Below are positions 5,228-64,000 of a stretch of DNA of 64,000 nucleotides, in pieces. Source of the stretch: Nemertoderma westbladi (taxonomy: Eukaryota > Animalia > Xenacoelomorpha); NCBI GenBank assembly GCA_032718475.1, contig JAUCBJ010001719.1, forward strand, positions 1 to 64,000. Reading direction: 5' to 3'. Numbering within the stretch: position 1 is the first letter of the stretch; each line of letters starts with the position of its first letter. The notes beneath the pieces are model-generated. The model ran no database searches. It was not told the origin of the DNA and worked only from the letters and a program-made list of their open reading frames with translations. The position numbers and the translations under genes are program-made.

Positions 5228-5289
5228 GTGCAGAATTTCAACTAATTTAAATTGACCACTACAAATTAATTGCATTTGCTCGAAGTAAG

Positions 5290-6914: not shown

Positions 6915-9900
6915 ATGGCCCAAGAAAGTTTTACGCGTCAAATGGCTAGAACCGAAGCCTGGCAAGCGGTAAAGGTGGGAGAGATCGTCAAGTTCAACGG
7001 AGATGAGATGAAATGGTTACCTTTTATTGAATATTATAAAGATAACATACAGAACTCTGTGCTATCTAATGGAGAGAAGCTTAGATTCCTCATCGAGTGC
7101 TTGGAAGGATCTTCCAAGTTAATGGCGTTAAAGTTTATGATGGATTAAGACAAGTTTGGGATACACTAAACATCAGGTATGGTAATAGGAATAACATGGC
7201 TAGGTATTTGTATGCGAAATTGGTAGCGCCACGAAAGTTTCTTAGCAGCGGGATTATAGAATTTTCCGATGAGATCCAGGATATTTGTAGACAATTAGAT
7301 TGGCTAGGTAAGTCTCATGAGTATCAGAGTTCTATGGTTATTGGAGCTGTAGCATCTACCTTGCCAAAGAGTGGAGTAGGTACTCGTTGGGACAAAAGAG
7401 TTCTATATATGATGGAACAACAACGAAGAGACCCTACCATGGCTGATCTCATGTCATTCTTAGATGGAGAGGTAAAATTACAGCTCCTAAAGCAGTCCAG
7501 AGAGAAGACACCGGAAAATAAGGTAAGTGAAAAACCCGTTTCTAGGAGAAAGGTAACACCAGTGTGTTATACAGACGACGGCGAAAGCCAGACCTCTCAA
7601 GAGGAGAACAACGGGAAAGACACCAAAAGATCTTACTATGTCAACAAAACACCTAAAGACGTAAGTAAATTTAAGTCTCGAACCAGTGACAGGAGAGAAC
7701 AGGTAACAAAAACTCCTCCTACGTCTCCCAAGAGAGTTCATGGAAGAAAGCCCGAGGAAAGAACGAGTGTGCACAACATTACCCAAGGTAAAGTATGTAA
7801 CATCAAACCAAAATGTGCATTGTGCGACGGGCCCCACCGTTTAAGTGTGTGTGATGAATTCGGCGAACCTGTTACTCCGATGCGAGGTGTGCTAAGTGCG
7901 GCGCGAAACATCATATCTTGTTGCACACCGAATTGGAAAGAAACAGCCGGAGTCAGGTAAGTGAGTCTGAACTACATGTCCAATTCAGTGATGTGAACGA
8001 TACTGACCAAAGTTCTGAGATGGAAGGATTCTACACGGATGAATTCTCCGACGAAAATGAATCCTGTTATCTAATAAACACCGCAGTGTATCGAGCGCTT
8101 ACGTATGAGACCGAAACCGATAACGAAGCGCACCCGGTTATTCCTGACCGACAACCATCCTGGAAAGCACCAACTTCCAACGTCGGAATCCGGGAATTCC
8201 CCGTAGTTCAGCTAAGAGTCCATGGGTCGAGTAAGAGTTTTATAGTCAACGCACTCCTGGACTCCGGCAGCACAGGAACGTTCATCGATAAAGAACTAGC
8301 CGAAGACATCTTTGCAGGACAACCCAAGTTCCGAACTAAGTTGAACCTTTCAGGAATTATGCAGGTTTGGAAATCTACCGTAGCTACAGACTACTATGTA
8401 GGTGCGTTGTCCACTCCCCAAGACGAACTAGGAGAACACAGTATAAGGTCAGTAAAAATGGTGGTGATAAAGAACTTTGCTACCAGCCAAGTAGAACCTT
8501 ACAACTGGGATGAAGACGATTTTACCCAGCAATATAATATCCCTAGATTCAACACCGACTACTCAGGGGTGCAAATTTTAATCGGCCAAAATGCGCATGA
8601 GGCGCTTGAGACATTAGAGAAACGACCTGCTCGACCGCAACCATTGCAAACTTATGCGGGAAGAACTAGAGTAAGTTGGTACTTCACTGGACCTTCCCGT
8701 AGAATGCTCATGGAAAGATTACCCCCTGAACAAGTGCACCAGGTGAGTGAATGGGAAGAAGAAATCAGTGAGGGAGAAATCACACCTGAGGGAACACCAT
8801 ACTCCTCAGATAACGACGATATTACCCAGCTATTTGACGAGGAAAATACGATAGACCTCCTCACTGAAAGTGAAGCTTGGAGAAACCAAGTGCACCTTTG
8901 CCATCTCATCCATCATGGCGGACAACTCAATTATGACGATGAGCTAAATGAGGTGATAGATCGACATAATGCTAAGATTCGTGACGAACACGCCGTACGA
9001 TTCTTTACTCAAGAAGCTGTAGAACCTAATTCCTACGACAAAGCACTATCAGTCAAGGAGGAAAGAGCCAAGCAGATCCAGGCAACGACTACACGTTTCC
9101 TTAGGGATCAAGGGAGGTATGAAATTGGTCTGCCATTTCGAATGCGAGAACCTAATTTTATAAATAACCGACCCTTGGCTGAGAAAAGAATCGCTCAACT
9201 ACATCGACGTCTTACGGCAAACGCTTCAGCTAAAGAGATGTACAAGACACAGCTGAAGAAATTCATCGATAAGGGATATGCGGAGCGAGTACCAGAAGAA
9301 ACACCCATAACTGAGAGAACGTATTATTTAACGTTACCAAACCCGGTAAACCCAACGAAGTTCGGGTAGTATTTGACGGCTCCGCCCTCTACATGGGCCA
9401 ATCCCTTAATTCGGAGTTGTTGCCGGGACCCAACTTACTCCAATCCTTGTTGGGAATACTCTTAAGATTACGGCAATATTCGATCGCCTTCGCCTCAGAT
9501 ATAGAAGGCATGTTCTTACAAGTTAAGGCGCTGGATAGGGATCGAGACAGCCTGCGATTTCTGTGGTGGCCTGAAGGAGACCTCAGCCAAAAACCTGTGG
9601 AGTACTGGATGACCATCCAGGCTTTCGGAATCATCTCGAGCCCCTCGAACGCCTGTTCAGTAGTGCGCACCACTGCTGATGACAACCGAGACACCTTCTC
9701 TAAAGCGGTTATCGACAACATCAAACGGGATATATACATGGACGATAATTTAAAGTCCCTCCCATCGGTGGAAGAAGCCATTGATGTTGCCAAGGGAATG
9801 GTAGAGTGTTTAAAACGTGGTGGATTTCGACTAACTAAATTCACCAGCAACTCCCATGAGTTTCTGGAATCGATCCCGGTAGAAGACCAAGGAGTTAAAG

Positions 9901-12614
9901 ATCTAGACCTAATCAAGGATGATCTTCCAGAAACCAAGACGCTTGGTTTGAAATGGGACACGGAGAGAGATATCCTGTTTTTCCAGCAGCGAGATAATCC
10001 AGTTCGAACTAAACTGATTTGTCTAAGTATCCTGAGCACTTATTTCGATCCATTGGGAATCATTAGCCCAGTTATATTGGTTGCTCGGAGTTTAGTTCAA
10101 CAAATGTGGCTTGAAAACCACTCGTGGGACGATCCACTTAAGGGAGAACTACTAAAGAAGTGGATGAAATGGGAAGATTCTCTATCATCCATCGAGAAAT
10201 TTATGATTTCCCGTTCATATTTTGGTCAGTCATGTTCTTCCAATGTATTCGTATCAACTCCATGTGTTTGGAGACGCCAGCAATATGGGAATAGGTATAG
10301 TAGCCTACCTGAGGGTTGAAACTCCGGATGGAATTAAAGTTGCCTTGGTTACCTCTAAGGCCTTGATAAACAACAAGCTACGAGTTCCTCGAGTGGAGTT
10401 AAAAGCGGCTCTATACGCTACAGCCATCGGCCGGAATGTCACAGAACAGATCGACTATCCACTGGAGAAAACTGTCTATTGGACTGATGCTTTACTCGTT
10501 TTGGAGTATATAACCAATGAAGTCTGTCAGTTCAGCGTCTTTGTTACCAACAGAGTAGCCGTTATACTTAGTCGCACTAGTGTAGATCAATGGAGACATT
10601 GCCCTGGGACGATTAATCCAGCCGACATTGCCTCCAGAGGAGCAACTCCTCAAGAACTGGTAGACACTCCGGACTGGTTAGGTGGACCCGACTTCCTAAG
10701 TAAAGAAGAAGATGAATGGCCTCCTCATCTTACCACGGCTGAGATTAGACAAGCCAAGGGAGCAGAGAAAGTCAAACCTAAAACCCGGACGAGTAAATCG
10801 AAGTTATTTAAACCCGTGATAGATCTGTCTGTACTACATCTTTCCGGAGACGACGCTGTGGATCTAAACTTCCCCGCCACAAATAAGTCTGTTGTGGAAA
10901 TCAGAGAGAGAGACTGGAAATCTGGAACACCAGACGTTTCGCAGGGACTCTCACCTCTCCTACAGAGGGCGATACATCACTATAGCTCCTGGAATAGGCT
11001 TTGTAAGGCCGTTGCGTATTTGAAGCGATGCTTCCATTATCACTACTCCAGGATGAAGATCACTAGTGATACCGCTCCACCGACATCTGTGCAGGTCCAT
11101 GCTATTAAAGATCTTCCCAAATATAAAATCTCAGATAGGTTTCTGACGGAGAAGATCAGTTACCAGGTGCATGAAGAAACCAATAAGCAGATACTGAGAC
11201 TCCTGCAATGCTATGAAGATTCCGATAAGTATTTCCTGTAGTTGAGAAATCCACAGATGCGCTTAAGGGATCGTTTCTCTAGCACAATGATAGATGGGTT
11301 AATGTTGGAGGGAGACTAACTAATGCTCCATTATCCTTTGACACTAAGTTTCCCAAACTTATTAGAAATCTTGAAATACAAATCAAGATGATTGTAGATG
11401 TTCACAGTAAGCTTTACCATGCTGGTAGAGAACGAGTTCTTAGCGAAATTCGAACTCGCTATTATTTTCATAAACCCCGTAGAGCTCTGAACCAAGTTCT
11501 TAGGAACTGTATACCCTGTAGGAAAGCATTCAGTAGGCCTTTAACACAGCGAGAGGTAGAATTACCTAGGGAGTGAGTAAGCTTCTATGAACCACCCTTT
11601 ACTAATACCGGTGTGGATTTATTTGGCCCTATTGAAGTATATCGTGCCAGGACTATAGTCAAGCGATGGTGTGTCATCTTTTTCTGTATGACTTGTAGAG
11701 CGATCCATTTAGATATGGTGAACGATCTATCTACCAACAGCTTCATACTGAGTCTACACCGACAGATCGCTCGCTTTGGAACTAGCAACACTATGAGATC
11801 TGATAAGGGGACGAACTTCATTGGGGCCAATAATGAGATCAAGGCTTACGTTAGAGATTGGAACCAAAGACAGGTGGACGATCAGCTAAGAGTAACAGCG
11901 TCTAGCTGGACATTCAACGCCGCCGACGCCCCTTGGTGGGGAGGAAGTTGGGAGAGATTAATAAGAAGCATGAAGACCGCATTTCACTTTATAGTGCCGT
12001 GCCGCGCGTATCTCACCGACGAACTTTTGCGGACGTTAATGGAAGAAATCGCCGCCTATCTTAACGAAAGACCGCTTATGCCAGTCTCATCGAGTCCCGA
12101 CTCCCTGGAAGCGCTAACACCCGCGCACTTCCTACTGAAGAAACCTGTAGCCATGCTCCCCCGATCGGAAATCACGGATGGAGATGAATACTGCCGACAA
12201 ACTTGGCAACTTATGCAGTTATTATCCCGTCGTTTCGCTGACCATTTCGAAAAACATTATCTGCCCATGCTACAACTTCGAACCAAGTGGTTTGCGCAGC
12301 AAGAAAACGTCAGCGCCGGAGACATGGTCCTTATTTTGGAAACAGATCTTCCATGTAAGCGGTGGCAGACAGGTCGTATCATCGAGACTCATATCTCAGA
12401 TGACGGTTTAGTGCGATCGGTAGAACTCGTCGTCATGCGACGTAACTTTAAGAAACCGGGAATTGTATTCGAAACACAGCAGCTCAATCGCCCAGTTGGT
12501 CGTTTATGTTTACTGGAGAGAGACAGAGAACTGTCCGGAAACTATGGAAGGCAAGATACTCTTCCCACGACCACCTCCCTAATCCAACAGACATCTAGGG
12601 ACTCCCCAACGTAA
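6915..12614 (+). pseudogene. pol: BEL/Pao gag-pol polyprotein with frameshifts, stops and deletions
   Basis: gag FNGDEMKWLPF; protease ALLDSGSTGTFI; RT SDIEGMFLQV and YMDD; Pao RNase H LHVFGDAS, RVELKAA, WTDA, NPADIASRG; integrase DLFGP, SDKGTNF, WERLIRSMK. The second gag Zn knuckle is deleted at ~7861 relative to C. Confidence 0.93.
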
Positions 12615-17600: not shown

Positions 17601-17640
17601 AAAAACCACAGGGGGGGGGTGGGTGGGGCTGGAGGAAGGG

Positions 17641-19325: not shown

Positions 19326-19403
19326 CTGTTTAGAGTATTTTTATATTTTAGAAACTGTGATTTTTTATATTTTATAGAATTAAATCCCATTTTCTGGGAG
19401 CGG

Positions 19404-20631
19404 TGTAAAAGCTTTTGCGGATATAACCAGTCATTTTCTCCGCAATTAACTGTTTAGTTGTTTTAGCGGACATAACAAGCCATTTTCTCCGCAATGTACC
19501 CTGTAGGTGTTTTAGCGGACATAACAAGCCATTTTATGCCGCAATACGCCAAATACTCTAAATAGAGTGTAGTTTCAGATGACGAAATCTGTCAGCTGAT
19601 TTGCTGTCGATGTGGAACTTTCTTTGTTCAGGCTCGCTCGACCAATCAGAGCGATTTTCATTTTATTTGCACAGAGGCCTATGGGAAAACGCGCAATGCA
19701 TTACGGTCTTTGTTTACCTTTCTGAGCGAGAACAACTGCTTGGGAATTCTTCTGTACTTCTGTGTTGGAAGTTTCAGACTTTGGCCAGCATTAGACGGCT
19801 TTGATTACAAGAACGTAAATCTATTATCTGCAAACCAAACTACCAACTGCGGTACCGGTACTACCGATACTGCACCTGTCAACTTGTCAACCGATCACCT
19901 GCACTGCGCAACTGTGCAACAAACTGGTCAACTGGCTGACTATCACCGCATTATTTTACTTCTGTTTACTGTCTGTTATTAATGGTTATATGTTGATGGA
20001 TATGTTGTTATATTTGGAGAATATCGATAAATAATCATAAAACCCCCAATCTTCTTGATTACTAAAGGTTAGAGGGACCGGTTACCGGTAGCAATTGCGA
20101 CTTACATTACAGTGGTTTTAGTGTGCATCAAATGCTATTTCATAATCCCTACATGTGTCAGTTGCTATCCTCCTTATATATGATCAAATTCAGTGACGGT
20201 AGGCAGATCAGTGTGAAACAGTGTGAAGTCGTGTGCAGTAGTGTGACAGATAATAAAGCATCTCCTAAAGAATGCGCTATTTACGAAAATCAGTAGCCAT
20301 CTCGTTGTGTTTAGTATAAGTCATAACTCTGTTTTATACTTAAAGCGCCACGTCCTAAAGGAACTGTTAATATTTCCTTGAAAGTGAATAATATTGTCAG
20401 AGATTATATAGTAACAATCAATCGAATAATACAGTAGGTCTGCAACGCAATAAGGTCAAAGCATCCGAATCCAGTCTCCCTTAACTGTGGGTGAATGATC
20501 GCGCATAGACTGGCTTCGGCTAATGTTACTTCATGTGCATTAAATAATTGCTATAGGCTAAAGTCGATTTATAAACAAGAGGACACCTAAAATTGGCAGG
20601 TTAAACTGCTAAAGGTCTGAAAGCGCGAACA
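19404..20631 (+). repeat. 3' LTR of element B (1228 bp)
   Basis: Preceded by CTGGGAGCGG; starts TGTAAAAGC and ends GCGCGAACA like the LTRs of C; three imperfect repeats with a GCGGA(C/T)ATAAC core near the 5' end. Confidence 0.92.
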
Positions 20632-30261: not shown

Positions 30262-30746
30262 CCAGGTTGGAATTTATGTAGAGTTTGCTCAACATGTGTG
30301 GCGCGCATTTAGGATCCTGGCGCGAAGGAACAGGGGCGTGTGGCGCGCATTTAGGATCCTGACGCAAAGGAACAGGGGCGTGTGGCGCGCATTGAGGATC
30401 CTGGCGCGGAAATGGATGTCATGTACAGTAGCAAAATGCATTGGCATGGCAACATATCCAGCCACTCTAATTGAAATTATATCGGTCTACCAGTAGAGTC
30501 TATTTTTAAAAAGAGTTAGGCCTAGGCCTTAAAGATTTTCGCTCACTTCGGTCGCGTTTGTATATTATATGCCTGCCCACTGTACGCTCTACTGTGTCTA
30601 CTCTTATTCATCATTCTAATAACTTTTAATTTAAAAATTTAATGGTCAATCTTTCAATGGTTGGCGCGCTTTGAATGTCATGGCTGGCGCGCTTTTCGTT
30701 TAACCCGAATCCGTGTGGCGCGCTTTTTGTCAATATTCCATATAGG
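30262..30746. mobile_element. hAT-like MITE, duplicate of 25118-25602
   Basis: Same ends and GAGCAGAC TSD. Confidence 0.75.
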
Positions 30747-42999: not shown

Positions 43000-43790
43000 T
43001 ACAGTAGTTATTATGTCGTAACACAAGATCGTTTGTTATCATGTAGGCTCAAATGTTAATTTGAGTGGTTCTTTGTAAATGAGTTTCAAATAATGATTTC
43101 ATAATGGCGCAAGGATATTCTTTAAGGTTGGTGCGCGGCGAGTTACAACTTCCAATTTATCTCGTATCCAAATCAAAACGTCAAATGTATTTTTTAGAAA
43201 AGCATCATGTTTGCTACCAAACTCGTGTAAATAATATTCAACAAACTTGCCCAAACGCTCAGTAACTGATCCACAGGCGGAATGAATATACCTCAATGGA
43301 TGATTTTCCTTGTGTGTTTTCACATTTCCAAATACTGTACCTGGTTGTGGGTCCTGGCCAATGAGCCAATCCTTGCATTCAATGATTGTTTTCAAATTTT
43401 CCATTTTAAAACAAATTGAGTCACTTTAACTAAATAATCTACAGAAGGATCCAAATCGTGCTGTTTAAAGCAAGATTTATCTTCTAAGTGTCGTTCAACA
43501 CTACTACAATATGTTGAATTTTTCAGAACAACAAATCGTTGTGAACCTTTATCTTGAATCCTAATAACACTTTCGCTCCCTATGGTGCCACATGTTTTCT
43601 TTAATTTAGTTAAAGCAATTCTCTCACTTTTACTTAAATTATCTTTTGTTTTAATTCGTTTAGATACATCAAATAAATCAGTTCTAACCTCATTCAAAAA
43701 TTGTTCTAGAATCGGATTGTTAGAGTTCAATGAAAAACGAGATTTACCGGGCCACGGTTTTTTTCGTGGATGAAAATCAGATGCTGTTTC
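43000..43790 (-). pseudogene. Penelope-like element RT, N-terminal fragment
   Basis: NLSKSERIAL..L, VIRIQDKG..FVV and VKTHKENHPLRYIHSACGSVTERLGKFV...FLKNT match the PLE pattern NL...E..AL / ADKG / PK.HK...P.RPI.S..GS.TE; frameshifted, no YxDD seen. Confidence 0.8.
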
Positions 43791-47041: not shown

Positions 47042-47629
47042 AGTTGAATATCGATATCAACTGGAGCCAGGGCCTGGCATTGTAGGACCGCGGTCAGTAT
47101 GTAAAATGTATGTTGGTTGCAGTAGGTAGGCCTACGGCAGTAACAGTGCTACATAGTGCTCAGTTAATCAGCGGAAGCCAGCGGAAGTTAATACACTAAT
47201 AATTTTCGATTCCGGTTTTAGGGCTTTTGGTATAACCATCGTCGAAAGCTCCATTTTAAAACGTGCTCTCCTGATCCTCTTTGATTAGATGATAGTTTCA
47301 CGATCGTCGATCTTTAGGGGAAGACAAGTTGATGGAAGGGGTAAAGGTTTGATGGGCAACCCGGAAAACCGGCGCCAACGCAAATTACGGTACTTAAAAT
47401 ATAGCTCTATACAGCAGAATTAGCCTTCAGTAGTTCAACTGGTATGTATGTGTTGGATTACACTCCTGTTGCATGATGACAGACATTCATTTGTAAATAG
47501 GATCCAAACGTATAGTTTGTCCTACGTAGTCACGTTTTGATTGCCCAACGCCGATACGTTTCTATATGTGCTATTATATCGAACCGTGTAGGTTGTCCAG
47601 TGGCGTCACGTTTCGTTTACCAAACACTG

Positions 47630-48780
47630 TGTAAAAGCTTTTGTGGGATATAACTGGCCCTTTTGCTTCGCAATCCAGTTTCCCTTAATGCGCTCAAATA
47701 CTCTAAAGAAAAACTCCCTAACTCAAATGATGCAAGCTACCGGCTGATTGGCTGATTTGCTGTATGTATGGCCTCTTTGTTCTGTTCGATCAACCAACCA
47801 GAGCAAGGTCAACCAAGCAGAGTGATTCATCCTGTGTGTTGGCCAAGGGCTGCAAAAACCCGAATAGTTCAGCATTTAGACATTCGTGGAATCTGTGGAA
47901 TATGGAGCTCTGCCAATGAGAGCTTTTCCTCTTTGTGCTGAAAGCTACCTGCAACAGCTCACAGGGTTCAGTGTGTTGGTTTTTCCAGAGCCTAGAACAT
48001 CGGCTATGGAGTTATTCTGAATTATTCCAACATTAGAACGACTTTAATTATAAGAACACATAACTGTTACCGTACGGTACCTACTGCTGTATTGCACATT
48101 ATTTACTGCGATTTACTGTTTGTTATTAATTGTATCAGTTGTTTACATATTGTTATTTGGAGAATAACGATAAACGATCAGAAACCCCGATCTTCTTGAT
48201 ACACTAAGGTTAGAGAGACCGGTTACATATAGCAATTGCGACTTATATTATCGTGGTTTGTAGTGAATTGAATGCTATTTTATAGGCCCTACAAATGTCG
48301 GTTGCTATTCTCTTTATATATGATTAAAATCAGTGACTATCGGCAATTCAGTGTGCAGCGGTGTGCAATAGTCTGTATGTGCTTGTCCGTGTAACAAAGC
48401 ATCTCCTAAAGAATGCACCTTATGTGTAACTTATAATCCATTCCGTTGTGTTTAGTGTAAGCCATAGCTCTGTTTATATAGATAGAGCGCCACGTCCTAA
48501 AGGAACTGCTAATATTTCCCGAAAGTGAATGATATTTGTCAGAGATTATATATTAACGATCAATCGAATAGTACGGTAGGCCTGCACCGCAATCAAATTA
48601 AAGCATCCGAATCCAGTCTCCCGGGTATATCCAGCGGGTGAATGGTCGCGCATAGACTGGCTTCGGCTAATGTTGGATTTATTTGTGTCAAATACTTGTC
48701 ATAGGCTAAAGTCGATTTATAACCTAGAAGACATATAGATTTGGTGGGTTAAACTGCCAAAGGTCTTAAAAGCGCAAACA
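47630..48780 (+). repeat. 5' LTR of C
   Basis: About 7 mismatches by eye to 57951-59101. Confidence 0.96.
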
Positions 48781-48791
48781 GTAACAGTTAT
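48781..48791 (+). promoter_or_regulatory. Putative self-priming primer-binding site of C (GTAACAGTTAT)
   Basis: Abuts the LTR end, has no TGG, and is the exact complement of 48060-48070 (ATAACTGTTAC). Confidence 0.75.
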
Positions 48792-49119
48792 AATTCTGAT
48801 TGCAGTGTAGGCAATAAATACAGTTTACTATTGTTCTGATAAGAACAATAACGGTTATTGCTTCTTTATTGCCGTAAGCAATAAAGCTGAAGTACCGGTC
48901 GACCGGTAACCTGTAGGCCTAACTACCTAACCACCGGAACCGGTACTTACAGCAGTATACTGGTAGGTACATCAGTATTATTTCGATTGTGATATATTGT
49001 GTATATTGTAGGCTGTTAGGGGATTAGGGATTGATCACCCCTTATTCCTTTGCATGATTTACTTATTTCTGTCAGTTTTATTTACTAGTAGGCTAATATT
49101 GAGCAGAAGACGTGTAAGC

Positions 49120-49740
49120 CTGCTCAGATCGTACAGATAATTTGTAGGCTGGACTGTTGTCTGACTGTTGATAGGTCTGAACGGATTGCAGTGCATGTAG
49201 AGTGTATGTCCGATAAAGTGCCGGTTAGGAACGTAGGGGCAGCTAGAGCTGTAAGGTAAACCCCCCCCCCCCCCCGAAAGAATAAGTCGTACTACTAGGT
49301 TAGAACGCATACTAACTAACCATTTCGGAGTCTGCATGTCCTGTAGTTTATTTAGGCTTGATAGTAGTCTGCCAGCGTTTGGTCTGTACTTTGTTTGTAT
49401 AATCTGTACAGGTACCGTAATATTTCTCATTCAGATAATTTATAGGCTAGATTGTTGTCTGGCTGTTGTTAGGTCTTACGAGATTGTGGTGTGTGTAGAG
49501 TGTATGTCCGATAAAGTGCCGGTTAGGAAAGTAGGGGCATCTAGAGCTGTAAGGTAAATCCCCCCCCCCCCCCCCCCCGAAAGAATAAGTCGTACTACTC
49601 GGTTAGAACGCATACTAACTAACCATTTCGGAGTCTGCACATACTGTAGTTTATTTGGGCTTGATAGTAGTCTGCCAGCGTTTGGTTTGTATTTTGTTTG
49701 AGTAGTTTGTACGGGTAGCGTAATATTTATTATTCAGAGT
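49120..49740 (+). repeat. ~300-bp tandem duplication in the 2.3-kb leader of C
   Basis: Two copies of the block containing GCTGTAAGGTAAA-polyC-GAAAGAATAAGTCG; single copy in D. Confidence 0.85.
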
Positions 49741-51063
49741 TTATGCGATTATTCGCAACATTCATAACCCCAAGTTTATTCCTACAGTAATTGTGCTTGT
49801 TATACATACCGTTATAGTTAAATTAACCCCGGTACTACATCAGGGCTGCTTGGCATAGGTAAAGACTGGTGATTTTGTGCCCCGGTCACTCCAGCAGATG
49901 CCATGGTTCTTTTAGCTGTTCAAGTATTTTTAACTACTGATAATTTGTTGTACAAGTACTTGTACCTAATTTAGGGTTTAGTGTACAGTGCTTTCCGAAG
50001 GTAATTAGCGTGTAGGCAGTATATTTGTGTTGTAAAGTGGTTAATAGGCACGTTGGTTCTGGTAGACCGCGGTAATTAACTTCTAGGTAGGAACACTCCG
50101 TGATACATAACCTAGTACTTATAGCGATACGGCTATAAGTCGTCAGACGGTGGTATTTTTCCTATCTGGACAACGCAGTATATTTACTACTACTTATTAT
50201 TTTCAAATGCCATAGTACTCTGTCCGTTGTAATAACCAGATAATCTAACCCTTTGTTAGGCTGGTTTGTAGACTTCTTGTAAAATTACCCTAAAAATTCG
50301 TACGTGTAATTTTTGTGTTTATTTAGAGATTGTAATCTCACCCCGAATTGTATGTAATTTGTAGTATTAAGTAACTTAGGTAAATTAGAATTATTTGTTT
50401 TAGTGTCCAACAAGTAGCACTTCACTGAGAGCACACAGCTTCTGTGTGGTGACTCTTTCCCAGAAATAATAACATTTATTTCAAATATTGACAAAAACCC
50501 ATTAAAACGGGTATATATATTATAAATCAACTCAAACGATTTATAAATAGTAGGCCTGCCATACAACAACTAGGTCTCAATATCAGTTGGACTACTGCTC
50601 AAATAACGGTAATAAAGTAAGTTAAAGTAACCAAGTAACCCCTAAAATTCAGAAATTCAATTATTCTAAAATAATTGATATACCGGTATTTACAATAGGC
50701 TTATTATATTTATTTCTATAAATTTAGGCGGCAATTATTCCGGTATTCTGTAATTAATTCTAGTCCATAATTATACTTATATATACTATAAGTGTAAGCT
50801 GTATACCGGTATTCACGATAGGCCTATTATATATTTATATATATTTGTGCTGAAATTACATACCGGTATTCTGTGACAAACCTAGTCTGTAATAATACTT
50901 ATATATATTGTAAGTGTATACCGGTATTCTAATATATTATATATATATCACGTTACACTGAGTAACAGTATCGGTAATTAATTACTAGGCTAACAGTGAT
51001 ACTGAATTACTAGACTTGCTTAAACTGTAATATAGCAGTAGGCATTCAACTGTACAAACAAAC

Positions 51064-54000
51064 ATGTCTGACTCAAAACGGGCACTGTCAGATAGTCTTT
51101 TGAAAGGTGTTAGAATGAGTCTTCGACTTGGACAGTGTCTTGAAAGGATAGAAGACGGAAAAGAAGGGGAAAGAAAAGTAGCAGCGGCAGAAGCGGAAAG
51201 AAAAGCGGCAGAGGCAGTGGCAGAAGCAGAACAGAAGGCGTCTGAAGCGACTACCCAACTAGAGATTGAAAGCCTTCAGGCGAAACAAGATTACTTGAAA
51301 AAACAAACCAGAAGACAGGGATTTGCCCCCTCCGATGAGGGTGATGTAAGAGATCCTGAAAGTGGAGGTAATAAATCTCGTTCAAGCGGACGTAGAAGAA
51401 CGCCACACCGTCGGAGGTTGTCTGATTTCCCTCTTGGGGTGAGAGGGCGAATCTTGTATCATTCATTAGGTAATCTTGAACCCACAGACCAAATTATTAC
51501 AGTAGAAAGACTCCCTACTATAGTAGATGAGCCTGAAATAATTAGGGAGGTGGAGGTTGTCTGATTTCCCTCTTGGGGTGAGAGGGCGAATCTTGTATCA
51601 TTCATTAGGTAATCTTGAACCCACAGACCAAATTATTACAGTAGAAAGACTCCCTACTATAGTAGATAAGCCTGAAATAATTAGGCCTGTTCTCGAAGCC
51701 ACCCCTTCGGTGATAGAGACACCTGTACTCCCAGAACCTACCTCTAAATTCCCTTTGCACAGCACGAAACTACCTGTGCCCAGTAGGACTGTTCCCGAGT
51801 CCGAACCCATCCCGGACGCCGAGCGAGATATCAAGAATTTATCGCCCGTCGTCTCTCGCTTGCCCGCTACTACGTTGGCGACTCCCGCTTCGGCGGTCGA
51901 GTGGGTAGCTGAGGGACGACGGGCGATGGGTCTCCTGCTCGGGCAGCTGAGGGAACATTGTAAATGTTCCTCCCAGCAGGTCCGGGAGTTGGAAGGGACT
52001 GTTCAGCAGTTAAAGGGAGCAGTAAGAGAGGGTAGGTTAGCGTTGCAAGAAGTGCAGCAGAGTATCGCGTCAGAACGTGATAAGTTAGTAAATTTACAAA
52101 AGGGTATACCACCACCCTCTGTAACAATGTGTCAACCTGTTAGGTCTGAAGTATTTCATGCGCAAGGTGTGGAGCCTACACGCATCTATACTGCTAGTGA
52201 AGTAGAAACTCCTATAGTAAACCCTATTAAGGGTAATTATAAACCTGTTGACAGTGATATTCCATATAGACTTGATAATAATCCGCGAAATTTATATACC
52301 GATAACTCGATATTAAATAATACGATGGCCCAAGAAAGTTTTACGCGTCAAATGGCTAGAACCGAAGCCCGTCAAGCGGTAAAGATGGGAGAGATCGTCA
52401 AGTTCAATGGAGATGAGATGAAATGGTTACCTTTTAATGAATATTACAAAGATAACATACATAACTCCGTGTTATCTAACGGAGAAAAGCTTAGATTCCT
52501 CATCGAGTGCTTGGAAGGATCTCCCAAGTTAATGGCGTTAAAGTTTATTGGACATCCAGATGGATTAAGACAAGTTTGGGATACATTAAACATCAGGTAT
52601 GGTAATAGGAATAACATAGCTAGGTATTTGTATGCAAGATTAATGGCGCCCCGAAAGTTTCTTAGCAGCGGGATTATAGAGTTTTCCGACGAGATTCAGG
52701 AGATCTGTAGACAGCTAGATTGGTTAGGTAAGTCTCGTGAATACCAGAATTCTATGGTTGTAGGAGCCTTAGCATCTACTTTGCCCAAGGGTGGAGTAGG
52801 TATACGCTGGGACAAGAAAGTGTTATATATGATGGAACAACAATGAAGAGACCCTACCATGGCTGATCTCATGTCATTCTTAGATGGAGAGGTAAAATTA
52901 CAGCTTCTAAAACAGTCCAGAGAGAAGACACCGGAAAATAAGGTAAGTGAGAAACCCGTTTCTAGGAGAAAGGTAATACCAGTGTGTTATACAGACGACG
53001 GCGAAAGCCAGGCTTCTCAAGAGGAAGACAGCGGGAAAGACACTGAAAGATCTTACTATGACAACACAACGCCTAAGGACGTAAGTAAATTCAAGTCTCG
53101 AACCAATGACAGGAGAGAACAGGTAAGAAAAACTCCTCCCACGTCTCCTAAAAGAATTCACGGAAGAAAGCCCGAGGAAAGAACGAGCGTGCACCACACA
53201 GCACATGTTAAAGTAAGTAACATCAAGCCCAAATGTGTGTTGTGCGACGGGCCCCACCGTTTAAATGTGTGTAATGAATTCCTAAAGAAATCATTAAAGG
53301 ATAGACGTGAAGTCATGTGGGATAAGCGGTTGTGTTATAATTGTCTCAGACGAGGACACCAATGGCGAACCTGTTACTCCGACGCAAGGTGTGCGAAGTG
53401 CGGCGCGAAACATCATATTTTGTTGCACAGCGAATTCGAAAGAAACAGCCTGAGTCAGGTAAGTGAGTCCGAACTACATGTCCAATTCAGTGATGTGAAC
53501 GACACTGACCAAAGTTCTGAGATGGAAGGATTCTATACGGACGAATTCTCCGACCAAAGTTCTGAAATGGAAGGATTCTATACGGACGAATTCTCAGACG
53601 AAAACGAATCCTGTTACTTAATAAATTCCGCAGTGTATCGAGCACTTACGTATGAGAAGGAAACCGACAGTGAGCTCCCCCTAACTACTTCTGATCGACA
53701 ACCATCTTGGAAAGCGCCAACTTCCAATGTAGGAATCCGAGAATTTCCTGTAGTACAGTTAAGGGTCCACGGACCTAAAAGGAGTTATATAGTGAATGCC
53801 CTCCTTGACTCCGGTAGCACAGGAACATTCATCGACAAAGAACTAGCCGAGGACATCTTTGCTGGACAACCCAAGTTCCGAACTAAGTTAAACATGTCAG
53901 GAATTATGCAGGTTTGAAAATCTACATTAATAGCGGATTATTATGTAGGTGCGTTGTCCACCCCCCAGGATGGACTAGGAGAACACAGCATAAGGTCAGT

Positions 54001-54708
54001 AAAAATGGTGGCGATAAAGAACTTCGCTACCAGCCAAGTAGAACCTTATAACTGGGATGAGGACGATTCCACCCAGCAGCTTAATATACCTAGATTCAAC
54101 ACAGATTACCCTGGAGTGCAAATACTCATCGGCCAAAATGCGCATGAGGCGCTTGAGACATTGGAGAAACGGCCTGCTCAACCGCAACCGCTACAAGCCT
54201 ATGCGGGAAGAACTAGAGTAGGTTGGTACCTTACTGGCCCTTCCCGTAGAACTCTCATAGAAAGGTCACCAAAAGAACGGGTATACCAAGTAAGCGAATG
54301 GGAAGCGGAGAGCAGTGAGGTAGACGACCCAACTGAGGGAACACCATACTCCTCAGATAATGACGATATTAACTCCAATGTAGATCAATGGAGACATTGC
54401 CCCGAGACGATTAATCTAGCCGGCATCGCTTACAGAGGAGCAACTCCTTAAGAACTGACAGATACTCCAGACCAGTTAGGTGGACCCGACTTCCTAAATA
54501 AAGAAGATGAATGGCCTCCTCATCTTACCCCGGCGAAGATTAGACAGGCCAAGGGAGCGGAGAAAGTAACACAACCACTCAATCGCCCAGCTGGTCGTTT
54601 ATGTTTACTGGAAAGAGACCGAAAACTGTCCGGAAACTATGGAAGGCAAGATACTCTTCCCACGACCACCTCCCTAATCCAACAAATATCTAGGGACACC
54701 ATAACGTA
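51064..54708 (+). pseudogene. gag: gag-protease of C plus pol remnants
   Basis: ATG at 51064; three Cys/His knuckles (CVLCDGPHRLNVC, CYNCLRRGHQWRTC, CAKCGAKHHILLH); ALLDSGST; stops at 52844 and 53915; internal duplications; deletion junctions at ~54375 and ~54567. Confidence 0.92.
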
Positions 54709-55233
54709 ACAACATACGGAGTGGGTGTGTGACTATATTATTTTATATTTATTTTTATTATTTTATATTATGTATGTATTATTGTGTAATTTTATTATAA
54801 TCGTTTTCTTTAATTTCATTTAGTAGAATGTTATTTTAGCGATTATTTAGTAGATTAGTGCAATATATTAGCGTTTATTACTTAATTACCTGTATATTAT
54901 ATATTTAGTGCGACGGCGAGAAATAATTCTTTTTCTCATTCCTTACTGTCCGTATTACATTATAAATACGTGACTACAGTAAGATGAAATCTCCGTACTT
55001 ATTAAAGTACAATAAAGCTCCTACTATATTTAAGTATTATTGGTAGGCAGAGTATTAGGAATGCAAAGTTCAGATCCTCGTGTCTCGGCTAAACCAAGCT
55101 CTGGGTAGACCTTGGAAACGACTTGCCTCTTCACACTGACATTGCTTCGTGCGATATTGCTCTCATACCGTATATTAAATAATACATATAGTAGCGTGAT
55201 GTCCCTTTAACAGTAGCGTAAAACGCAAAATAA

Positions 55234-55533
55234 ATCTGTTAAACCCTTTGACCATCTGCAATTCTAGTCGATTAAGATATCGCGGCACCCACCGATATAC
55301 TTGAAAGACAAAATTCTAGAATCAGTGGTTAACGTCCCCAGACAAGTTCTGGAATAAACTGGTGCCCATCCTAAATATTAATTATTAATATTTACAAAAT
55401 CTGTCAAATTTTAGATCCTTTAAAATTCTAGTCGATTAAGATATCGTAGCACTTACCGATACTCTTAAAAGGACACATCCCTAGAATCAAGGATCCCAGT
55501 CCCCAGACTTGTTCTGGAATAAAATTGTGTCTG
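55234..55533 (+). ncRNA. Two tandem copies of the ~135-nt structured RNA motif (element C)
   Basis: Same pairings as 13141-13531; the spacer between copies is shorter. Confidence 0.65.
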
Positions 55534-56351
55534 TTTAATATTAAATAATAAAATTACGGGAATAAATTTAAATTCATCTTTTAATGAATTTGATAAATTG
55601 TTATTTTATACAATTTATAATATTCCCAAAATCCCATTAATTAATAGATCATGGGAGCGGAGATTCACCTATTAAGTGTATTAGTGCGCGAGAATCTCCA
55701 ATATAGAGTCAATAGCCGATAAAATTCATAAAATCATATATAAAGATGATATTGACCATTAAAGACTTACTATTAAATAGCATCCCAGATCTGTATGCAT
55801 GGGAATTACCCTAATTCTACCGCTAGCTTTCCATAATGTCACCATAGCAACAACCACGCTAGAATTAGAAGCGAGTTAACAGAACAATAAAAAGCTTGCT
55901 CATTGACTAGCATACGGAATAAATAGCACACCGCTAGTATCCAAGGATACATAATAACAACATGACATTCTGGAAGGCACTTGACTAACGGACAAATGAC
56001 CCGAATGTGTGATAGAATGTGTACCATTTGTGACAGTTACGTGGAATTTGTGCGTTTGTAGGTGAATGTTACTACTAAGGTGTGTTTACAGTAGCGATTC
56101 GCAATTGTGAAAGTAGCCCTAACTCTCCAGTAAGAACCTGAAGTATATCTAAGCCTTTGGGACGGACAGTGGAGTGACTCGTGCTGGTTGTTGTAGTCGT
56201 TGTGCAGCTACGAAGTTGGCGATAGGCACATCGGCGAAAGTACACCAGCGCTGAGGATCTCGCACTGTCCGGGGGCAGAGAGGGGTAGGCAGCGACACCC
56301 GCTCGCCTAAATATAAACTCATTATAATATGGATAAACTTATATAGCAGAT

Positions 56352-57872
56352 ATGATTGAGTTGATAGAAGATGATCTTGGTATCAGGGAGCGATATACTC
56401 TACCTTTACAAGCGTTTGTTGAAAGCTTGATACGCTGCGACGCTGGTCCAACTACTACGGAGGACGATGGTCGTTATATCTAACCGCCAATGTCCCGGGA
56501 GCAACTTGCGTGTGGGTTGGACTGTAGAAAATTCACCGCTCGCTATACGCATCGTAATGGTACGTATATGGACTTCTTAACTACTGGTCATCCTATCGAC
56601 CTACACGATACGAACGATATAGACACCAAAAGGGAAATGGTTTATTTAAATATCATACCCAGCGGAAGCGGAACGATAAACTGAGACTCGAACACGAAAA
56701 TTCTATTCGAAACCGACTCGAAAGTGCAGATGTTGAAGAGCCGGATAAACGCAGCGACTTCACCAAAATATCTGGAATTCTTGAGAGAAACATATCTCGA
56801 TATTACCAGTCAACAGAATCTAGAAACTCGATATCCTCAAGGTATACATCATGACCGCATGGTAGAACTCAAACGGCTCTATTCCACTATGATGTATCTT
56901 ACCGCCGATCGATCGCTACCTGTTGTACCGGATAGCTTCGAACAGATGGAGGAATATTGTAAGCTGGAGAAAGATCACTCGCGTTTCCCCTACAAGACGT
57001 GCGTCTTTGGTATTATTGCGATGAATGCCCTAGACCCAACCAACAAACGGAAAGACCTAAACATCCGCGGAGACGTTGCACTAAACACGGTTTTACTCGC
57101 TATACTGGCGGGAGTTTCGAGCGAAATTTGTTTGACGTATCACCTACGCTCGTTCGACTCAGACGATCCTTAAATAAACCAATGATCAGAGTTTCGGAAT
57201 ACTCGATCAGACCTCCTCATTCCCTAGTGAGACCTCAGACTCTTGATCCTATTAGTATGACGGATCCTCCCGAGCTGTACTCACTGTTCAAAGATCTAGT
57301 GTTACCTGAACAATTAGTCGGTGGCACCCCGGTTGTGGGCTTCCTAGATATTAGCCCATCCTACCTAGCCGGATTGGGACGCGGACATTTAATATCACCG
57401 TTTAACCCTTACCATCGTCCCGGCTTAACACGATATAACCTGTCACCAAAGTGGCGGAGAGCGTTGTACCCAATGAGTTGGACGCTATTCTACAAAGATC
57501 AGAAAAGAACTTACGCTTGTTCAGATAAACGTAAATTGCACTAGCAAGTCCAAGCCGTAAACAAAGTAACTTTATCTCAGTTCGATTGGGAAATCCAGAA
57601 TCTCTAAGAAGTTATCGAACTTGGACGACCCTATTCTCTGCGAGAGTTTTGGATGAACGTATCCAGCTACAAGCGGAGGAAAATCAGCTCGAGGAGAAGC
57701 ATATCGAAACGGCGGATACCCCAACCATAATCCTACACCTTCTGATACAATCATATTGCACCCTTCACCCAGGAGTTATAGCCCTCCTAGTAAAGTGGCT
57801 CCCCCCAAAGAGAAAAGGACTCTTGCTAGCTCTAAAAAACTGCGTAAACGCCGTCCACGCAAGACAGACTAA
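56352..57872 (+). pseudogene. 3' accessory ORF of C (frameshifted)
   Basis: Collinear with B 17774-19325; retains the ELKRLYSTMMYL block shared with element A. Confidence 0.78.
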
Positions 57873-57950
57873 CTGTTTAGAGTATTTTTATATTTTAGAA
57901 ACTGTGATTTTTTATATTTTATAGAATTAAATCCCATTTTCTGGGAGCGG

Positions 57951-59101
57951 TGTAAAAGCTTTTGTGGGATATAACTGGCCCTTTTGCTTCGCAATCCAGT
58001 TTCCCTTAATGCGCTCAAATACTCTAAAGAAAAACTCCCTAACTCAAATGATGCAAGCTACCGGCTGATTGGCTGATTTGCTGTACGTATGGCCTCTTTG
58101 TTCTGTTCGATCAACCAACCAGAGCAAGGTCAACCAAGCAGAGTGATTCATCCTGTGTGTTGGCCAAGGGCTGCAAAAACCCGAATAGTTCGGCATTTAG
58201 ACATTCGTGGAATCTGTGGAATATGGAGCTCTGCCAATGAGAGCTTTTCCTCTTTGTGCTGAAAGCTACCTGCAACAGCTCACAGGGTTCAGTGTGTTGG
58301 TTTTTCCAGAGCCTAGAACATCGGCTATGGAGTTATTCTGAATTATTCCAACATTAGAACGACTTTAATTATAAGAACACATAACTGTTACCGTACGGTA
58401 CCTACTGCTGTATTGCACATTATTTACTGCGATTTACTGTTTGTTATTAATTGTATCAGTTGTTTACATATTGTTATTTGGAGAATAACGATAAACGATC
58501 AGAAACCCCGATCTTCTTGATACACTAAGGTTAGAGAGACCGGTTACATATAGCAATTGCGACTTATATTATCGTGGTTTGTAGTGAATTGAATGCTATT
58601 TTATAGGCCCTACAAATGTCGGTTGCTATTCTCTTTATATATGATTAAAATCATTGACTATCGGCAATTCAGTGTGCAGCGGTGTGCAATAGTCTGTATG
58701 TGCTTGTCCGTGTAACAAAGCATCTCCTAAAGAATGCGCCTTATGTGTAACTTATAATCCATTCCGTTGTGTTTAGTGTAAGCCATAGCTCTGTTTATAT
58801 AGATAGAGCGCCACGTCCTAAAGGAACTGCTAATATTTCCCGAAAGTGAATGATATTTGTCAGAGATTATATATTAACGATCAATCGAATAGTACGGTAG
58901 GCCTGCACCGCAATCAAATTAAAGCATCCGAATCCAGTCTCCCGGGTATATCCAGCGGGTGAATGGTCGTGCATAGACTGGCTTCGGCTAATGTTGGATT
59001 TATTTGTGTCAAATACTTGTCATAGGCTAAAGTCGATTTATAACCTAGAAGACATATAGATTTGGCGGGTTAAACTGCCAAAGGTCTTAAAAGCGCGAAC
59101 A
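57951..59101 (+). repeat. 3' LTR of C
   Basis: Preceded by the PPT-position motif CTGGGAGCGG, followed by TSD CACTG. Confidence 0.96.
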
Positions 59102-59117
59102 CACTGATACGTTTCTA

Positions 59118-60419: not shown

Positions 60420-61251
60420 TTACGGTGCTAGAATGCTAAGGCTGTAATCTATAACTCCATCGTCGTAAACGGCTTCCCACGTGGTCTGAACTCTCGCTGT
60501 CTCCAACAACTTCACCCACTGATCTCTTGTCCATTTCGATGTAGTATTTATTTCCCCCAATCGAACTGTATTTCCCTTACGAAAACCTATCTCAAGGCCT
60601 ATGTTACTGAAATGGACATCAATATCTTTTTTAACTACGAAATATGTAGAGACATAGTTCAACTCCGATGTTTCAACAAACTTTACTTTTCTTTCGAAGT
60701 TGCGAGTGTCTAAGTCGCACCCAAACTCTTCATTTAGTCTGTTAACCCAGTTGTATGTGAACCTTTAATCCGCCCCCCCTTTCTCCCCGTAAGCCTCGAG
60801 TAGTCGTTTTTCGGATTGGGTTTTATCCGCTCCAATCAGCATCCGACCCCCGGTACCGATATTATGAAACATTCGGGAAATAAACTCACCCTGATCGCGA
60901 TACTTTAAACCACCTAGAGAACTCCCAAGAAACATAACTAAACTCATCAGCGGGCGAGACATCACGGAGACTATTCGTCCATACTCCTTCAAACACGAGG
61001 AATATTCTCCTTGGATCGTAGATATTTGAAAATTTTTATCGCCGTACTTGTTGAGCAAATATGCTTTCCCATCATCCAATGCATCATGACTGATGTCCAA
61101 CGTTGTAAAAGCCTTTGCTGAATTGCCCCGTTATTTTTATTATCTTTTACATTAAAATACTCTGTAGTTGATTTAATAAGTGTAAGAGACCGTATTATTG
61201 CTGTATCGGTGTTTTTAGAGGATCTAAGACCTATTTCCTCCGTATGTGTAC
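60420..61251 (-). pseudogene. egtD: EgtD-like histidine N-alpha-methyltransferase (Methyltransf_33 family), intronless, one in-frame stop, one frameshift, cut by element D
   Basis: LDISHDAL, MFLGSSLGGL, LIGADKTQSEKRLLEAYG..GGAD*RFTYNWVNRLNEEFGCDLD..NF and FRKGNTVRL...SKWT follow the EgtD pattern; the two track ORFs are in one frame separated by TAA at 60765-60767. Confidence 0.78.
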
Positions 61252-64000
61252 TGTGAAAGGCATATTTTATGATTCTATGGCAATTCGTGACGCAAAGGGG
61301 TGATAGCTACTCTTGAACAGTAGTTACTATGACTACGGTTAACAGCTGACATTCATACGTGTTGATTTCCTTTGTTCTACGGCGTCTCTCAGTTCAGTCA
61401 GCCAATTAGAGCGTTTTTGTGGCTCCTTGTACAGAAAATTTCCGAGAAATGACGCAATGCCTATGTGCAGTGTTTACATTCAGTCCTGAGCCAAAGAAAG
61501 AACGGCTTGGAAGTATTTTGTGCTTTACTGTTTTTAGTCTTACACTAGTAGGTTTAATTACAAGGACATATATCCTTTAACTACCTGACTCATGGAATCA
61601 CTGCTGACTGATCATACATGCTGACTGCTGAAACATTGCAAACTCATAACAATCAGTGTTTTCATTGTTGTTTTATACTGCTATTTACTGTCAGTTCTTC
61701 ATAATATGGTTGATGAATTATTATATTTGGAATAACGATAAATAACCCCGAAACCCAATATTCTTGATATACCGAAGGTAAGAGAGAAAGGTTACCAATA
61801 ACGATTGTGACTTATGTTAAAGTGGTTTGAAGTGAATCCAATGTTATTTGATAGACCCTACATGAGTCAGCCTGTGTTCCTTTTATATGTGACTAAAATC
61901 AGTGAAGATTGGCAGATTAGTGTGCAGCATTGTGTATGAGTGAGTCTGTTAAAGAAGCAATTCCTAAAGAATGCGCCATATATGTGAATTATAATTAAGC
62001 CATATCGTTGTGAGTAGTTTAAGTCATAACTCTGTTTATATAGATAAAGCGCCACGTCCTAAAGGAACTGTTAATATTCCCGAAGGTGAATAATATTGTC
62101 AGAGATTATATAATACTGTCAGTCGAATAATACATTAGGCTTACATAGCAATAAAATTAAACCGTCGAACCCAATCTCCCGGGAATCTCCAGCGGGTGAA
62201 TGGTCGCGCACGGATTGGTTTCGACTAGTGTAGTGAATCAAATACTTGTCAAAGACTAAAAACTGATTTAATATCTAGAAGACATCTTAATTTGGTGGGT
62301 TAAACTGCCAAAGGTCTGAAAGCGCGAACATTAAAGGATATAGCTTCTTTGTTGCAGTAAGCAATAAAGTTGAAAGTACCGGTCAACCGGTAAACCTGAA
62401 CGGTACATCTGTAGGTCAGTAGGCCCAACAGCTAGAACCGGTACTGCCGTATAAGTACACTAGTATTATTCGATTTGATTGTTGCATACCGGTAGGCTGT
62501 TTAAGGGATTAGGGATTGATCACCCCTTATACCTTTATATGGTTTACTTATTTCTGTCAAGTTTTATTTATTTGTAGGCCAGTATTGAACAGAAGGCGTG
62601 TAAGCCTGATCAGATAGTACAGACGATTTGTAGGCTGAGCTGTTGTCTGATTGCTGTTAAGTCCGAACGAATTGCAGTGTGTGTAGATCACCTACTAGAT
62701 AATTTGTAGGCTGGATAGTTGTCTGGCTGTTATTAGGTCTGAACGGATTGCCGCGTGTGTAGATCATCTGTCCGATTAAGTACGATTAGGCAGTAGGGGC
62801 AGCGAACGCTGTAAGGTAATCCCCCAACTAAAGAATAAGTCGCACTACTGGGTTAGAGCGCATACTCCCTAATCATTTCGGAGTCTGCATATACCGTAGT
62901 TTGTTTAGGCTTGATAGTAGTCTGTCAGTGTTCGGTCTGTATTTTGTTTGAGTAGTTTGTACGCGTAGCGTAATATTTATTATTCAGAGTTTATGCGATT
63001 ATCCGCAACATTCATTCCCCAAGTTTGTTCCTACAGTAATTGTGTTTGTTATACATACCGCTATAGTTAAATTAACCCCGGTACTACACGGGCTGCTTGG
63101 CGTAGGTAAAGACTGGTGATTTTGTGCATCGGTCACTCCAGCAGATGCCGTGGTTCTTTTAGCTGTTCAAGTATATTTAACTACTGATTGTCTGTTATAT
63201 AAGTACTCGTACCTAATTTAGGGTTTAGTGTACAGTACTTTCCGAAGTAATTATTGTAGACATTATATTTGTGTTGTAAAGTGGTTGATAGGCACATTCG
63301 ATTAGCTCTATTAACTTCTAGGTAGGAACACTCCGTGATACATAACGTAGAACCTATAGCGATACGGCTATAGGTCGTCAGGCGGTGGTATTTTCCTATC
63401 TAGACAACGCAGTGTATTTACTACTACTTATTATTTCAAATACCGTAGTACTCTGGCCGTTGTAATAACCAGTTTTCTAACCCTTTGTTAGGCTGGTTTG
63501 TAGACTTCTTGTAAAATTACCCTAAAAATTCGTATTTGTGTTTTTGTAAATTTTTGTGTTTATTTAGAGATTGTAATCTCAACCCGAATTGTACGTAATT
63601 CGTAGTATTAAGTAACTTAGGTAAATTAGAATTATTTGTTTTAGTGTCCTATACGTAACACTTCACTGAAAGCGCACCGCTTTGTGTAGTGATTACTCCC
63701 CAGAAATAATAACATTTATTTCAAACATAGACAAAACCCATTAAAACGGGTATATATATTATAAATCAAATCTAACGATTTATAAATAGTAGGCCTACCA
63801 TATAACAATTAGGTCTCAATATCAGTTGGACTACTGCTTAAATAACGGTAATAAAGTAAGTTAAAGTAACCAAGTAACCCTACAGTTCAGAAATTCAATT
63901 ATTCTAAAATAATTGATATACCGGTATTTACGATAGGCCTATTATAATATTTATATTTGTGCTGAAAGCATACCGGTATTCTGTAATTAATTCAGTTAAT
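61252..64000 (+). mobile_element. BEL/Pao LTR retrotransposon D, 5' LTR and leader (continues beyond the window)
   Basis: LTR 3' part homologous to B/C, ending GCGCGAACA at 62330; the downstream leader is collinear with C 48860-50850. The LTR start (TGTGAAAGG) is inferred. Confidence 0.88.
62331..62342 (+). promoter_or_regulatory. Putative self-priming primer-binding site of D (TTAAAGGATATA)
   Basis: Abuts the LTR end and is the exact complement of 61569-61580 (TATATCCTTTAA). Confidence 0.75.

Follow-up and report, generated by a model that had tools for sequence, protein, structure and literature searches.

A candidate self-priming mechanism in a BEL/Pao-type retrotransposon family with a PBS complementary to its own LTR

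Elements C and D and the sequence following their 5' LTRs

The 64,000-nucleotide stretch analysed here (Nemertoderma westbladi contig JAUCBJ010001719.1, positions 1 to 64,000; hereafter the window) is a repeat-rich segment of eukaryotic DNA in which self-comparison and Pfam searches identify four BEL/Pao-type retrotransposon pieces, designated A, B, C, and D. Element C spans positions 47630-59101 with both long terminal repeats (LTRs) present, and element D enters the window with its 5' LTR. The sequences directly following the 5' LTRs of C and D, their candidate primer-binding sites (PBSs), suggest that this family primes minus-strand DNA synthesis in cis, using a stretch of its own RNA that is complementary to the PBS; we place the probability of this reading at roughly 0.8. 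The features on which it depends are as follows.

47625..47629, + strand: left copy of the target-site duplication CACTG of element C (right copy at 59102-59106)
47630..48780, + strand: 5' LTR of element C (TG...CA, 1151 bp)
48043..48059, + strand: shared LTR motif in element C, directly upstream of the core; putative seat of the transcription start and of an upstream pairing arm
48060..48070, + strand: candidate self-primer core of element C
48781..48791, + strand: PBS of element C (GTAACAGTTAT), the exact reverse complement of 48060-48070; no TGG
48848..48858, + strand: second, degenerate PBS copy in element C, within a roughly 70-nt duplication of the LTR end, PBS, and hairpin
57951..59101, + strand: 3' LTR of element C, preceded by a purine-rich tract
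61104..62330, + strand: 5' LTR of element D; its leader continues past the window edge
61569..61580, + strand: candidate self-primer core of element D
62331..62342, + strand: PBS of element D (TTAAAGGATATA), the exact reverse complement of 61569-61580

Element C is a young insertion, as its two LTRs differ at only 7 of 1151 columns and it is flanked by CACTG. An earlier note on this DNA had observed that the 11-12 nt following the LTRs of C and D are exact complements of a stretch within the LTR itself, and both matches are confirmed. They begin at the first base after the LTR, which is the register needed for priming, and the boundary in C is fixed by the LTR ends together with CACTG. The same note reported that neither element has a TGG-type transfer RNA (tRNA) PBS, and indeed no TGG is present within about 60 nt past either 5' LTR end; the 18-nt tRNA-complementary PBS described for BEL/Pao elements by the virus taxonomy committee ICTV is absent from both. 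With a first-order Markov model of each LTR, the expected numbers of chance matches are 5e-4 for C and 3e-4 for D. When 1599 positions of each leader are compared, only the PBS reaches 11 nt in C, and three positions reach at least 11 nt in D, two of which are the PBS itself; matches of either PBS to the LTRs of other elements extend to only 4-6 nt.

Each LTR contains one copy of the motif TTT(A/G)ATTA(C/T)AAG(A/G)AC, four in the window as a whole, and in B, C, and D alike the candidate 11-mer begins 17 nt after it, in keeping with the homologous LTR position previously proposed for the matches in C and D (the motif region was compared by pairwise local alignment, MAFFT having misaligned the motif). 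These 11-mers differ pairwise at 4 of 11 columns. Those of C and D are thus homologous, with 7 of 11 positions identical, and because of this their chance probabilities cannot be multiplied; the earlier treatment of them as two independent matches of 'different' sequences does not stand. The covariation between LTR and PBS does: all four differences between C and D are compensated in the PBS (probability about 4e-5 for coincidence of both columns and letters), and pairing drops to 7 of 11 positions when the partners are swapped. The pairing of PBS and LTR is real and selected.

Assignment to BEL/Pao

The assignment of the family to BEL/Pao, also made in the earlier note, is upheld by Pao-type proteins encoded in the following regions.

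2-2140: element A, integrase end
9315..12614, + strand: pol pieces of element B, comprising reverse transcriptase (RT)/RNase H with Peptidase_A17 matches and integrase with DUF5641, interrupted by frame changes
51031..57544, + strand: broken coding region of element C, including gag-type DUF1759

The broken pol of element B begins at position 6907 and has Pfam matches to PF05380 (1.7e-16 and 2.7e-14) and PF18701 (1e-20), and element C matches PF03564 (1.6e-13). The family thus presents the polyprotein expected of BEL/Pao elements – a DUF1759 gag region, RT-RNase H (PF05380), and an integrase with DUF5641, in that order – as well as TG...CA LTRs, a polypurine tract, and a target-site duplication. 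With the ICTV description of the Belpaoviridae (PMC8742986) it shares the Pao-type gag, RT/RNase H, and integrase-end domains, the order RT-RNase H-integrase, LTRs near 1.2 kb, the purine tract, and a 5-bp target duplication. That description gives the PBS as 18 nt complementary to tRNA-Arg or tRNA-Gly, and replication as tRNA-primed and 'poorly understood'; the window family differs in having no tRNA-type PBS, and its BEL/Pao assignment rests on the proteins. Element C lacks the stretches matching B 8825-10580 (RT/RNase H) and 10773-12472 (most of the integrase) and is therefore non-autonomous; we infer that its movement must have depended on enzymes provided in trans.

The RT/RNase H piece of B has 281 homologues at E <= 1e-30. 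Among the 120 of these that were listed, identity to B is 37-51%, most carry PF05380, and the named hosts are corals, a sea anemone, hemichordates, a crinoid, bivalves, a tunicate, and a fish. The protein scan found no relative in viral contigs, and the LTR DNA pattern had no matches in viral or prokaryote contigs. Between B, C, and D the 3' part of the LTR (650-700 bp; 48097-48780 in C) is 74-80% identical, and the 5' part is much less conserved.

A predicted PBS for element B

The third LTR type allows the pairing to be predicted from its LTR side.

19404..20631, + strand: 3' LTR of element B
19816..19827, + strand: candidate self-primer core of element B, whose complement is the predicted B-type PBS

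Contigs of four public DNA runs (X1-X4, from at most three samples) were aligned to the LTR end and PBS of D, and the results on loose ends given here cover the 24 of 64 rows that were listed. The PBS that the earlier note had predicted from the B LTR appears in part in X1, in which seven contigs fit up to 62334 and then continue with 8 letters complementary to B 19816-19823 (agreement 0.56 over 30 letters). The three aligned letters ahead of these 8 in the same row fit the prediction as well, and position 62331 is read as the B-predicted letter in 41 contigs. Four single-contig rows (X1, X2, X3) carry a C-like PBS starting with A directly past the LTR end, with an unreadable LTR partner. Among the B-like contigs, 12 of the 15 joints listed (31 in all) start at 19826-19832, the predicted position of the cut that would release the primer; these copies agree to the 3' end of the core and then diverge, which fits a strand-transfer junction at the cut and also plain hypervariability. 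Contigs aligned to the LTR end of B itself reveal no post-LTR sequence, as the flank there is another repeat.

Distant BEL/Pao relatives

A wider comparison was made with 80 loci from metagenome contigs whose products are 40-45% identical to the B RT/RNase H. In 11 of these the end of the 5' LTR is fixed by the repeat itself, and eight of the 11 are self-complementary, two have a TGG-type PBS, and one (L044), whose boundary is uncertain, gave no match. Seven of the self-complementary loci (L022, L023, L024, L029, L040, L070, and L078) have an 11-15-nt complement that is split in the LTR by a GT-AG intron, that of L022 being taken from the blind scan described below, and the eighth, L074, has a contiguous complement, its boundary being uncertain (LTRs 74% alike, no CA end). 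The TGG-type PBSs of L041 and L066 are of a kind that we take to be tRNA-Tyr.

A blind scan, requiring a CA, an offset of 0-3 nt, and at least 10 complementary nt across a GTRAG/GTACG...YAG intron, was applied to the 70 loci with room upstream (10 of the 80 had none). It returned 20 loci in which 11-15 nt after the LTR are complementary to a splice junction, versus 2 of 70 in the reverse-strand control, and these 20 represent 14 families at 90% clustering. The predicted LTR introns are 75-426 nt long; 19 of the 20 PBSs begin with GT, like that of C. The PBSs lie 0-3 nt from the LTR end, close to the 3-5 nt seen in both TGG-type loci. Contiguous complements of 10 and 11 nt are present in L050 and L052, and that of L074 likewise measures 10-11 nt; for contiguous matches a looser version of the scan was uninformative (24 of 70 controls matched).

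Judged from these contigs, the trait is not peculiar to the C/D family and is shared with 14 distant families, contrary to the earlier idea of a single self-priming BEL/Pao lineage. In most of the distant relatives that can be read, the same core appears to arise when an LTR intron is spliced out, and the family in the window looks like an intron-less version. A core-splitting intron in B, C, or D themselves is ruled out, all three cores being contiguous and without a preceding AG. In a quick tree of 74 rows (24 of the 80 loci dropped as near-duplicates; no named clade references), B lies on a long branch (1.53) within a set of 11 rows with support of 96 that mixes split, contiguous, and TGG-type loci, and because of this mixture the tree indicates neither the direction nor the number of origins.

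The loose scan also encountered inverted matches of 17 nt and 20 nt near the 5' ends of two related loci (L048:613-690 and L067:70-255), which are not at established LTR ends.

The probable RNA start and predicted folding of the leader

Pairing beyond the core was examined in 16 sets, made up of one locus per family together with C and D. The 12 nt upstream of the core pair with the 14 nt after the PBS at -5.71 kcal/mol in cognate combinations versus -4.08 +/- 0.50 kcal/mol in swapped ones (24/20000 permutations), element D ranks 1 of 16, and three windows further upstream give no pairing signal. An A lies two bases ahead of the core in 14 of the 16 sets. This pattern suggests that the RNA includes the 10-12 nt upstream of the core, which speaks against a start downstream of it. 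A start about 10-15 nt before the paired core is suggested both by the second helix and by the intron-split cores of the relatives, which imply a spliced first exon; the earlier proposal of a primer made up, as in Tf1, simply of the RNA's first 11 nt is thus probably incorrect.

Upstream of the cores in B, C, and D there is no TATA(A/T)A within 80 nt. The C sequence TTTAATTATAAG was considered as a TATA box and judged unlikely to be one, since B and D have TACAAG at that place.

When the whole leader of D is folded from the core onwards, the core:PBS duplex has a predicted probability of 0.62-1.0. Two further hairpins are predicted.

48740..48761, + strand: predicted hairpin (RNAfold) 20-40 nt before the LTR end, in all four LTRs
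48864..48886, + strand: predicted hairpin just after the PBS, common to D (about 62347-62369)

Only three sequences underlie the predictions of the hairpin in U5 (the unique 5' region) and of a longer stem whose end is 3 nt short of the PBS, and the consensus fold of the LTR 3' part has a positive covariation term that, with three sequences, is not informative.

All three LTR types also conserve a splice-donor-like AAGGT(T/A)AG (48206-48213 in C), 146-249 nt past the core, and, about 330 nt beyond it, an acceptor-like TTGTCAG with a branch-like motif (48510-48543 in C). The donor-like site possibly serves a subgenomic RNA or an LTR intron.

A model for priming and its alternatives

In the mechanism that we propose, transcription would start inside the shared motif, about 10-15 nt ahead of the core, and the 5' end of the RNA would fold across the roughly 720-nt R-U5 (repeat and unique 5') region onto the PBS, where the core helix would form, often accompanied by a short second helix beyond an internal loop. 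A nuclease would cut just 3' of the core (after 48070 in C, 61580 in D, and 19827 in B) – by analogy with Tf1 the element's own RNase H, acting in trans on RT-less copies such as C – and the freed 3'-OH would be extended from the terminal CA of the LTR. Plus-strand synthesis would later copy the primer into a new PBS, and it is because of this proposed copying that the PBS would track every change in the LTR. An intron within the primer would lie upstream of the cut, so that new copies would receive it from the RNA's 3' LTR and it could survive; if it were precisely lost, the result would be the ready-made core of the window family.

Several observations weigh against this mechanism or parts of it. 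For the second helix, a sliding profile preceded the choice of the -12..-1 window, a test on the full duplex is marginal (967/20000), and the first PBS of C taken alone gives no support (rank 8 of 16); in the whole-leader fold of C the partner of the core is the degenerate second PBS copy (48848-48858) and not the first. Were the TATAAG at 48049 in C to act as a TATA box, transcription would begin downstream of the core. A duplex 3' of the core like that of Tf1 is unsupported, the 12 nt after the core pairing with the LTR end at -3.0 in cognate and -3.4 in swapped combinations. The strict intron scan of the relatives was tightened after the looser one had given its 24 of 70 control matches, mostly contiguous. 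The prediction for B is borne out in part: X2, from the same sample as X1, matches 7 of the 8 letters, the X3 and X4 rows at the 62334 site differ from it, perhaps because they show genomic DNA flanking 3' LTRs, and the predicted letter at 62331 cannot be tied to the same seven X1 contigs.

Four other explanations have to be set against self-priming in cis. The pairing could be real and selected yet structural, serving packaging, dimerisation, or a translation switch, with priming by something else. Retroviruses have long-range leader pairings, other conserved hairpins are predicted in this leader, and a priming intermediate has not been seen; the duplex nevertheless ends at the first post-LTR base (0-3 nt off in the relatives), the very place of the TGG-type PBS in L041 and L066, and no alternative primer site is visible after the LTR, so we consider a purely structural role unlikely. 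Much the same doubt attaches to a primer of the same LTR sequence that acts in trans, being processed into a short RNA from the transcripts of other LTRs, such as solo or 3' LTRs; we rate this slightly lower. It would lead one to expect complementarity and covariation equally, and the runs contain many and varied LTRs of this family (thousands of contigs), but priming in trans would tend to mix PBS and LTR types, whereas each element matches its own LTR and not those of its neighbours, making cis priming the simplest account.

Priming by an internal tRNA fragment or another small host RNA, with the LTR match secondary, has a precedent in the half-tRNA priming of Ty1/copia lineages (accessible parts of PMC6317226), and ARAGORN finds no tRNA gene in the window with which to compare. 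It would need a different host RNA for each of the three PBS types here and the 14 in the relatives, and would leave the complementarity to the element's own LTR, in relatives across a splice junction, unexplained; we regard it as very improbable. Least credible is chance, or a local inverted duplication without function. The sequences are AT-rich, the core of C is nearly palindromic, and a single old event could have been inherited by the homologous C and D, but the four changes out of four were compensated while the LTRs diverged by 20-25%, the prediction for B largely held, and 14 distant families repeat the pattern, with control matches in 2 of 70 loci. The compensated changes and the recurrence in relatives largely refute this explanation.

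Comparison with known self-priming elements

Self-priming in cis by the window family would have its closest counterpart in the Tf1/sushi elements, which lack a tRNA PBS and in which a PBS on the scale of 11 nt directly after the 5' LTR complements the element's own LTR-derived RNA (accessible text of PMC7175516 and PMC10085805); the PBS is copied into the ends of the complementary DNA (cDNA) (accessible text of PMC11042837). Like Tf1 and Tf2 of Schizosaccharomyces pombe, the window family has a PBS after the LTR that is complementary to its own LTR. It is not a member of the Tf1/sushi Ty3/gypsy chromoviruses, having Pao-type Pfam families and no chromodomain match, and the feature probably works like Tf1 self-priming without such membership. 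There are further differences from Tf1. The core of the window family is about 720-810 nt from the PBS, its RNA probably includes 10-15 nt ahead of the core, where a second helix would lie, and the BEL/Pao relatives, as their contigs read, appear to build the core by splicing. Among the three duplexes of the Tf1 'pretzel', two of which flank the PBS, that just 3' of the core is unsupported in the window family and its relatives. Cleavage of the primer is proven for Tf1 only and would apply to the window family by analogy. To our knowledge, self-priming itself has been proven only for Tf1-type Ty3/gypsy elements.

Self-priming has also been predicted for the plant TAR lineage of Ty1/copia (Houba, Osr-1) and for Tcn1 chromoviruses, and since these predictions extend beyond the yeast model, separate origins have already been proposed (accessible parts of PMC6317226). 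The TAR and Tcn1 elements belong to other superfamilies and hosts than the window family, and no intron-split primer is described for them in the accessible parts of that source. The earlier note knew of no report of self-priming in BEL/Pao elements, and none was found in the literature searched, which excluded subscription journals, Repbase, GyDB entries, and supplements; term searches of the main texts of PMC3118150, PMC554778, and PMC6238403 returned no mention of a PBS or of priming. The comparison also covered the accessible parts of PMC3601003, PMC3286476, PMC8220671, PMC2774666, and PMC5341516.

If the proposed mechanism is correct, a third superfamily uses self-priming and escape from tRNA priming is recurrent, the ICTV description of the Belpaoviridae requires correction, and it becomes clear why PBS finders based on tRNAs would miss such elements. 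In the relatives, the start of reverse transcription would be tied to host splicing, a control point of a kind not found in the literature searched. Escape from silencing by tRNA fragments is a speculative benefit. Exact and cheap predictions follow from the mechanism for the RNA 5' end, the cut site, and a primer-linked cDNA. We give even odds to a broader proposal, in which a large branch of BEL/Pao in marine animals would replicate mainly, and possibly from its ancestor onwards, by self-priming. Its primer would be a 5' fragment, capped and about 20-25 nt long, bound to the PBS by two helices and in most families made by host splicing of an LTR intron that the window family has lost; the textbook tRNA priming of the Belpaoviridae would in that case apply to no more than a part of them.

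Other features of the window

The second PBS copy of C begins at 48848-48852 with ATAAC, the first five letters of the Tf1 PBS (accessible text of PMC11042837), which is probably chance. Element A has a probable LTR at 5013-5613 with a clear TATAAAA (5434) and an AATAAA (about 5553), and its self-complementarity is only 7-8 nt, at an uncertain LTR end; a 7-nt complement of 5616-5622 to the likely start at 5459 is too short to call. Within this probable LTR lies a tRNA-like segment (5141-5218) with A-box-like and B-box-like motifs, missed by both ARAGORN and Rfam; the only Rfam matches in the window are two weak ones to microRNA families, far below threshold. Between the integrase and LTR of A (2775-4313) are two open reading frames (ORFs) of 208 and 217 amino acids with no Pfam match, and the LTR is followed at 5604-6906 by 1.3 kb unrelated to the C/D leader, which gives way abruptly to the B coding region.

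Element B contains a Ty3/gypsy-type RNase H-integrase piece (RT_RNaseH, Integrase_H2C2, rve) at 15102-17640, flanked by an 892-bp direct duplication of B sequence (14210-15101 and 17641-18532, 98.9% identical). The post-integrase regions of B and C (12615-19400 and 55400-57950) are long and contain short ORFs of 160-195 amino acids with no Pfam match. Elsewhere in the window, 22228-31169 and 43790-46266 contain a 3.8-kb duplication (99.2%) with minisatellite arrays and a tandem array with a 49-bp period.
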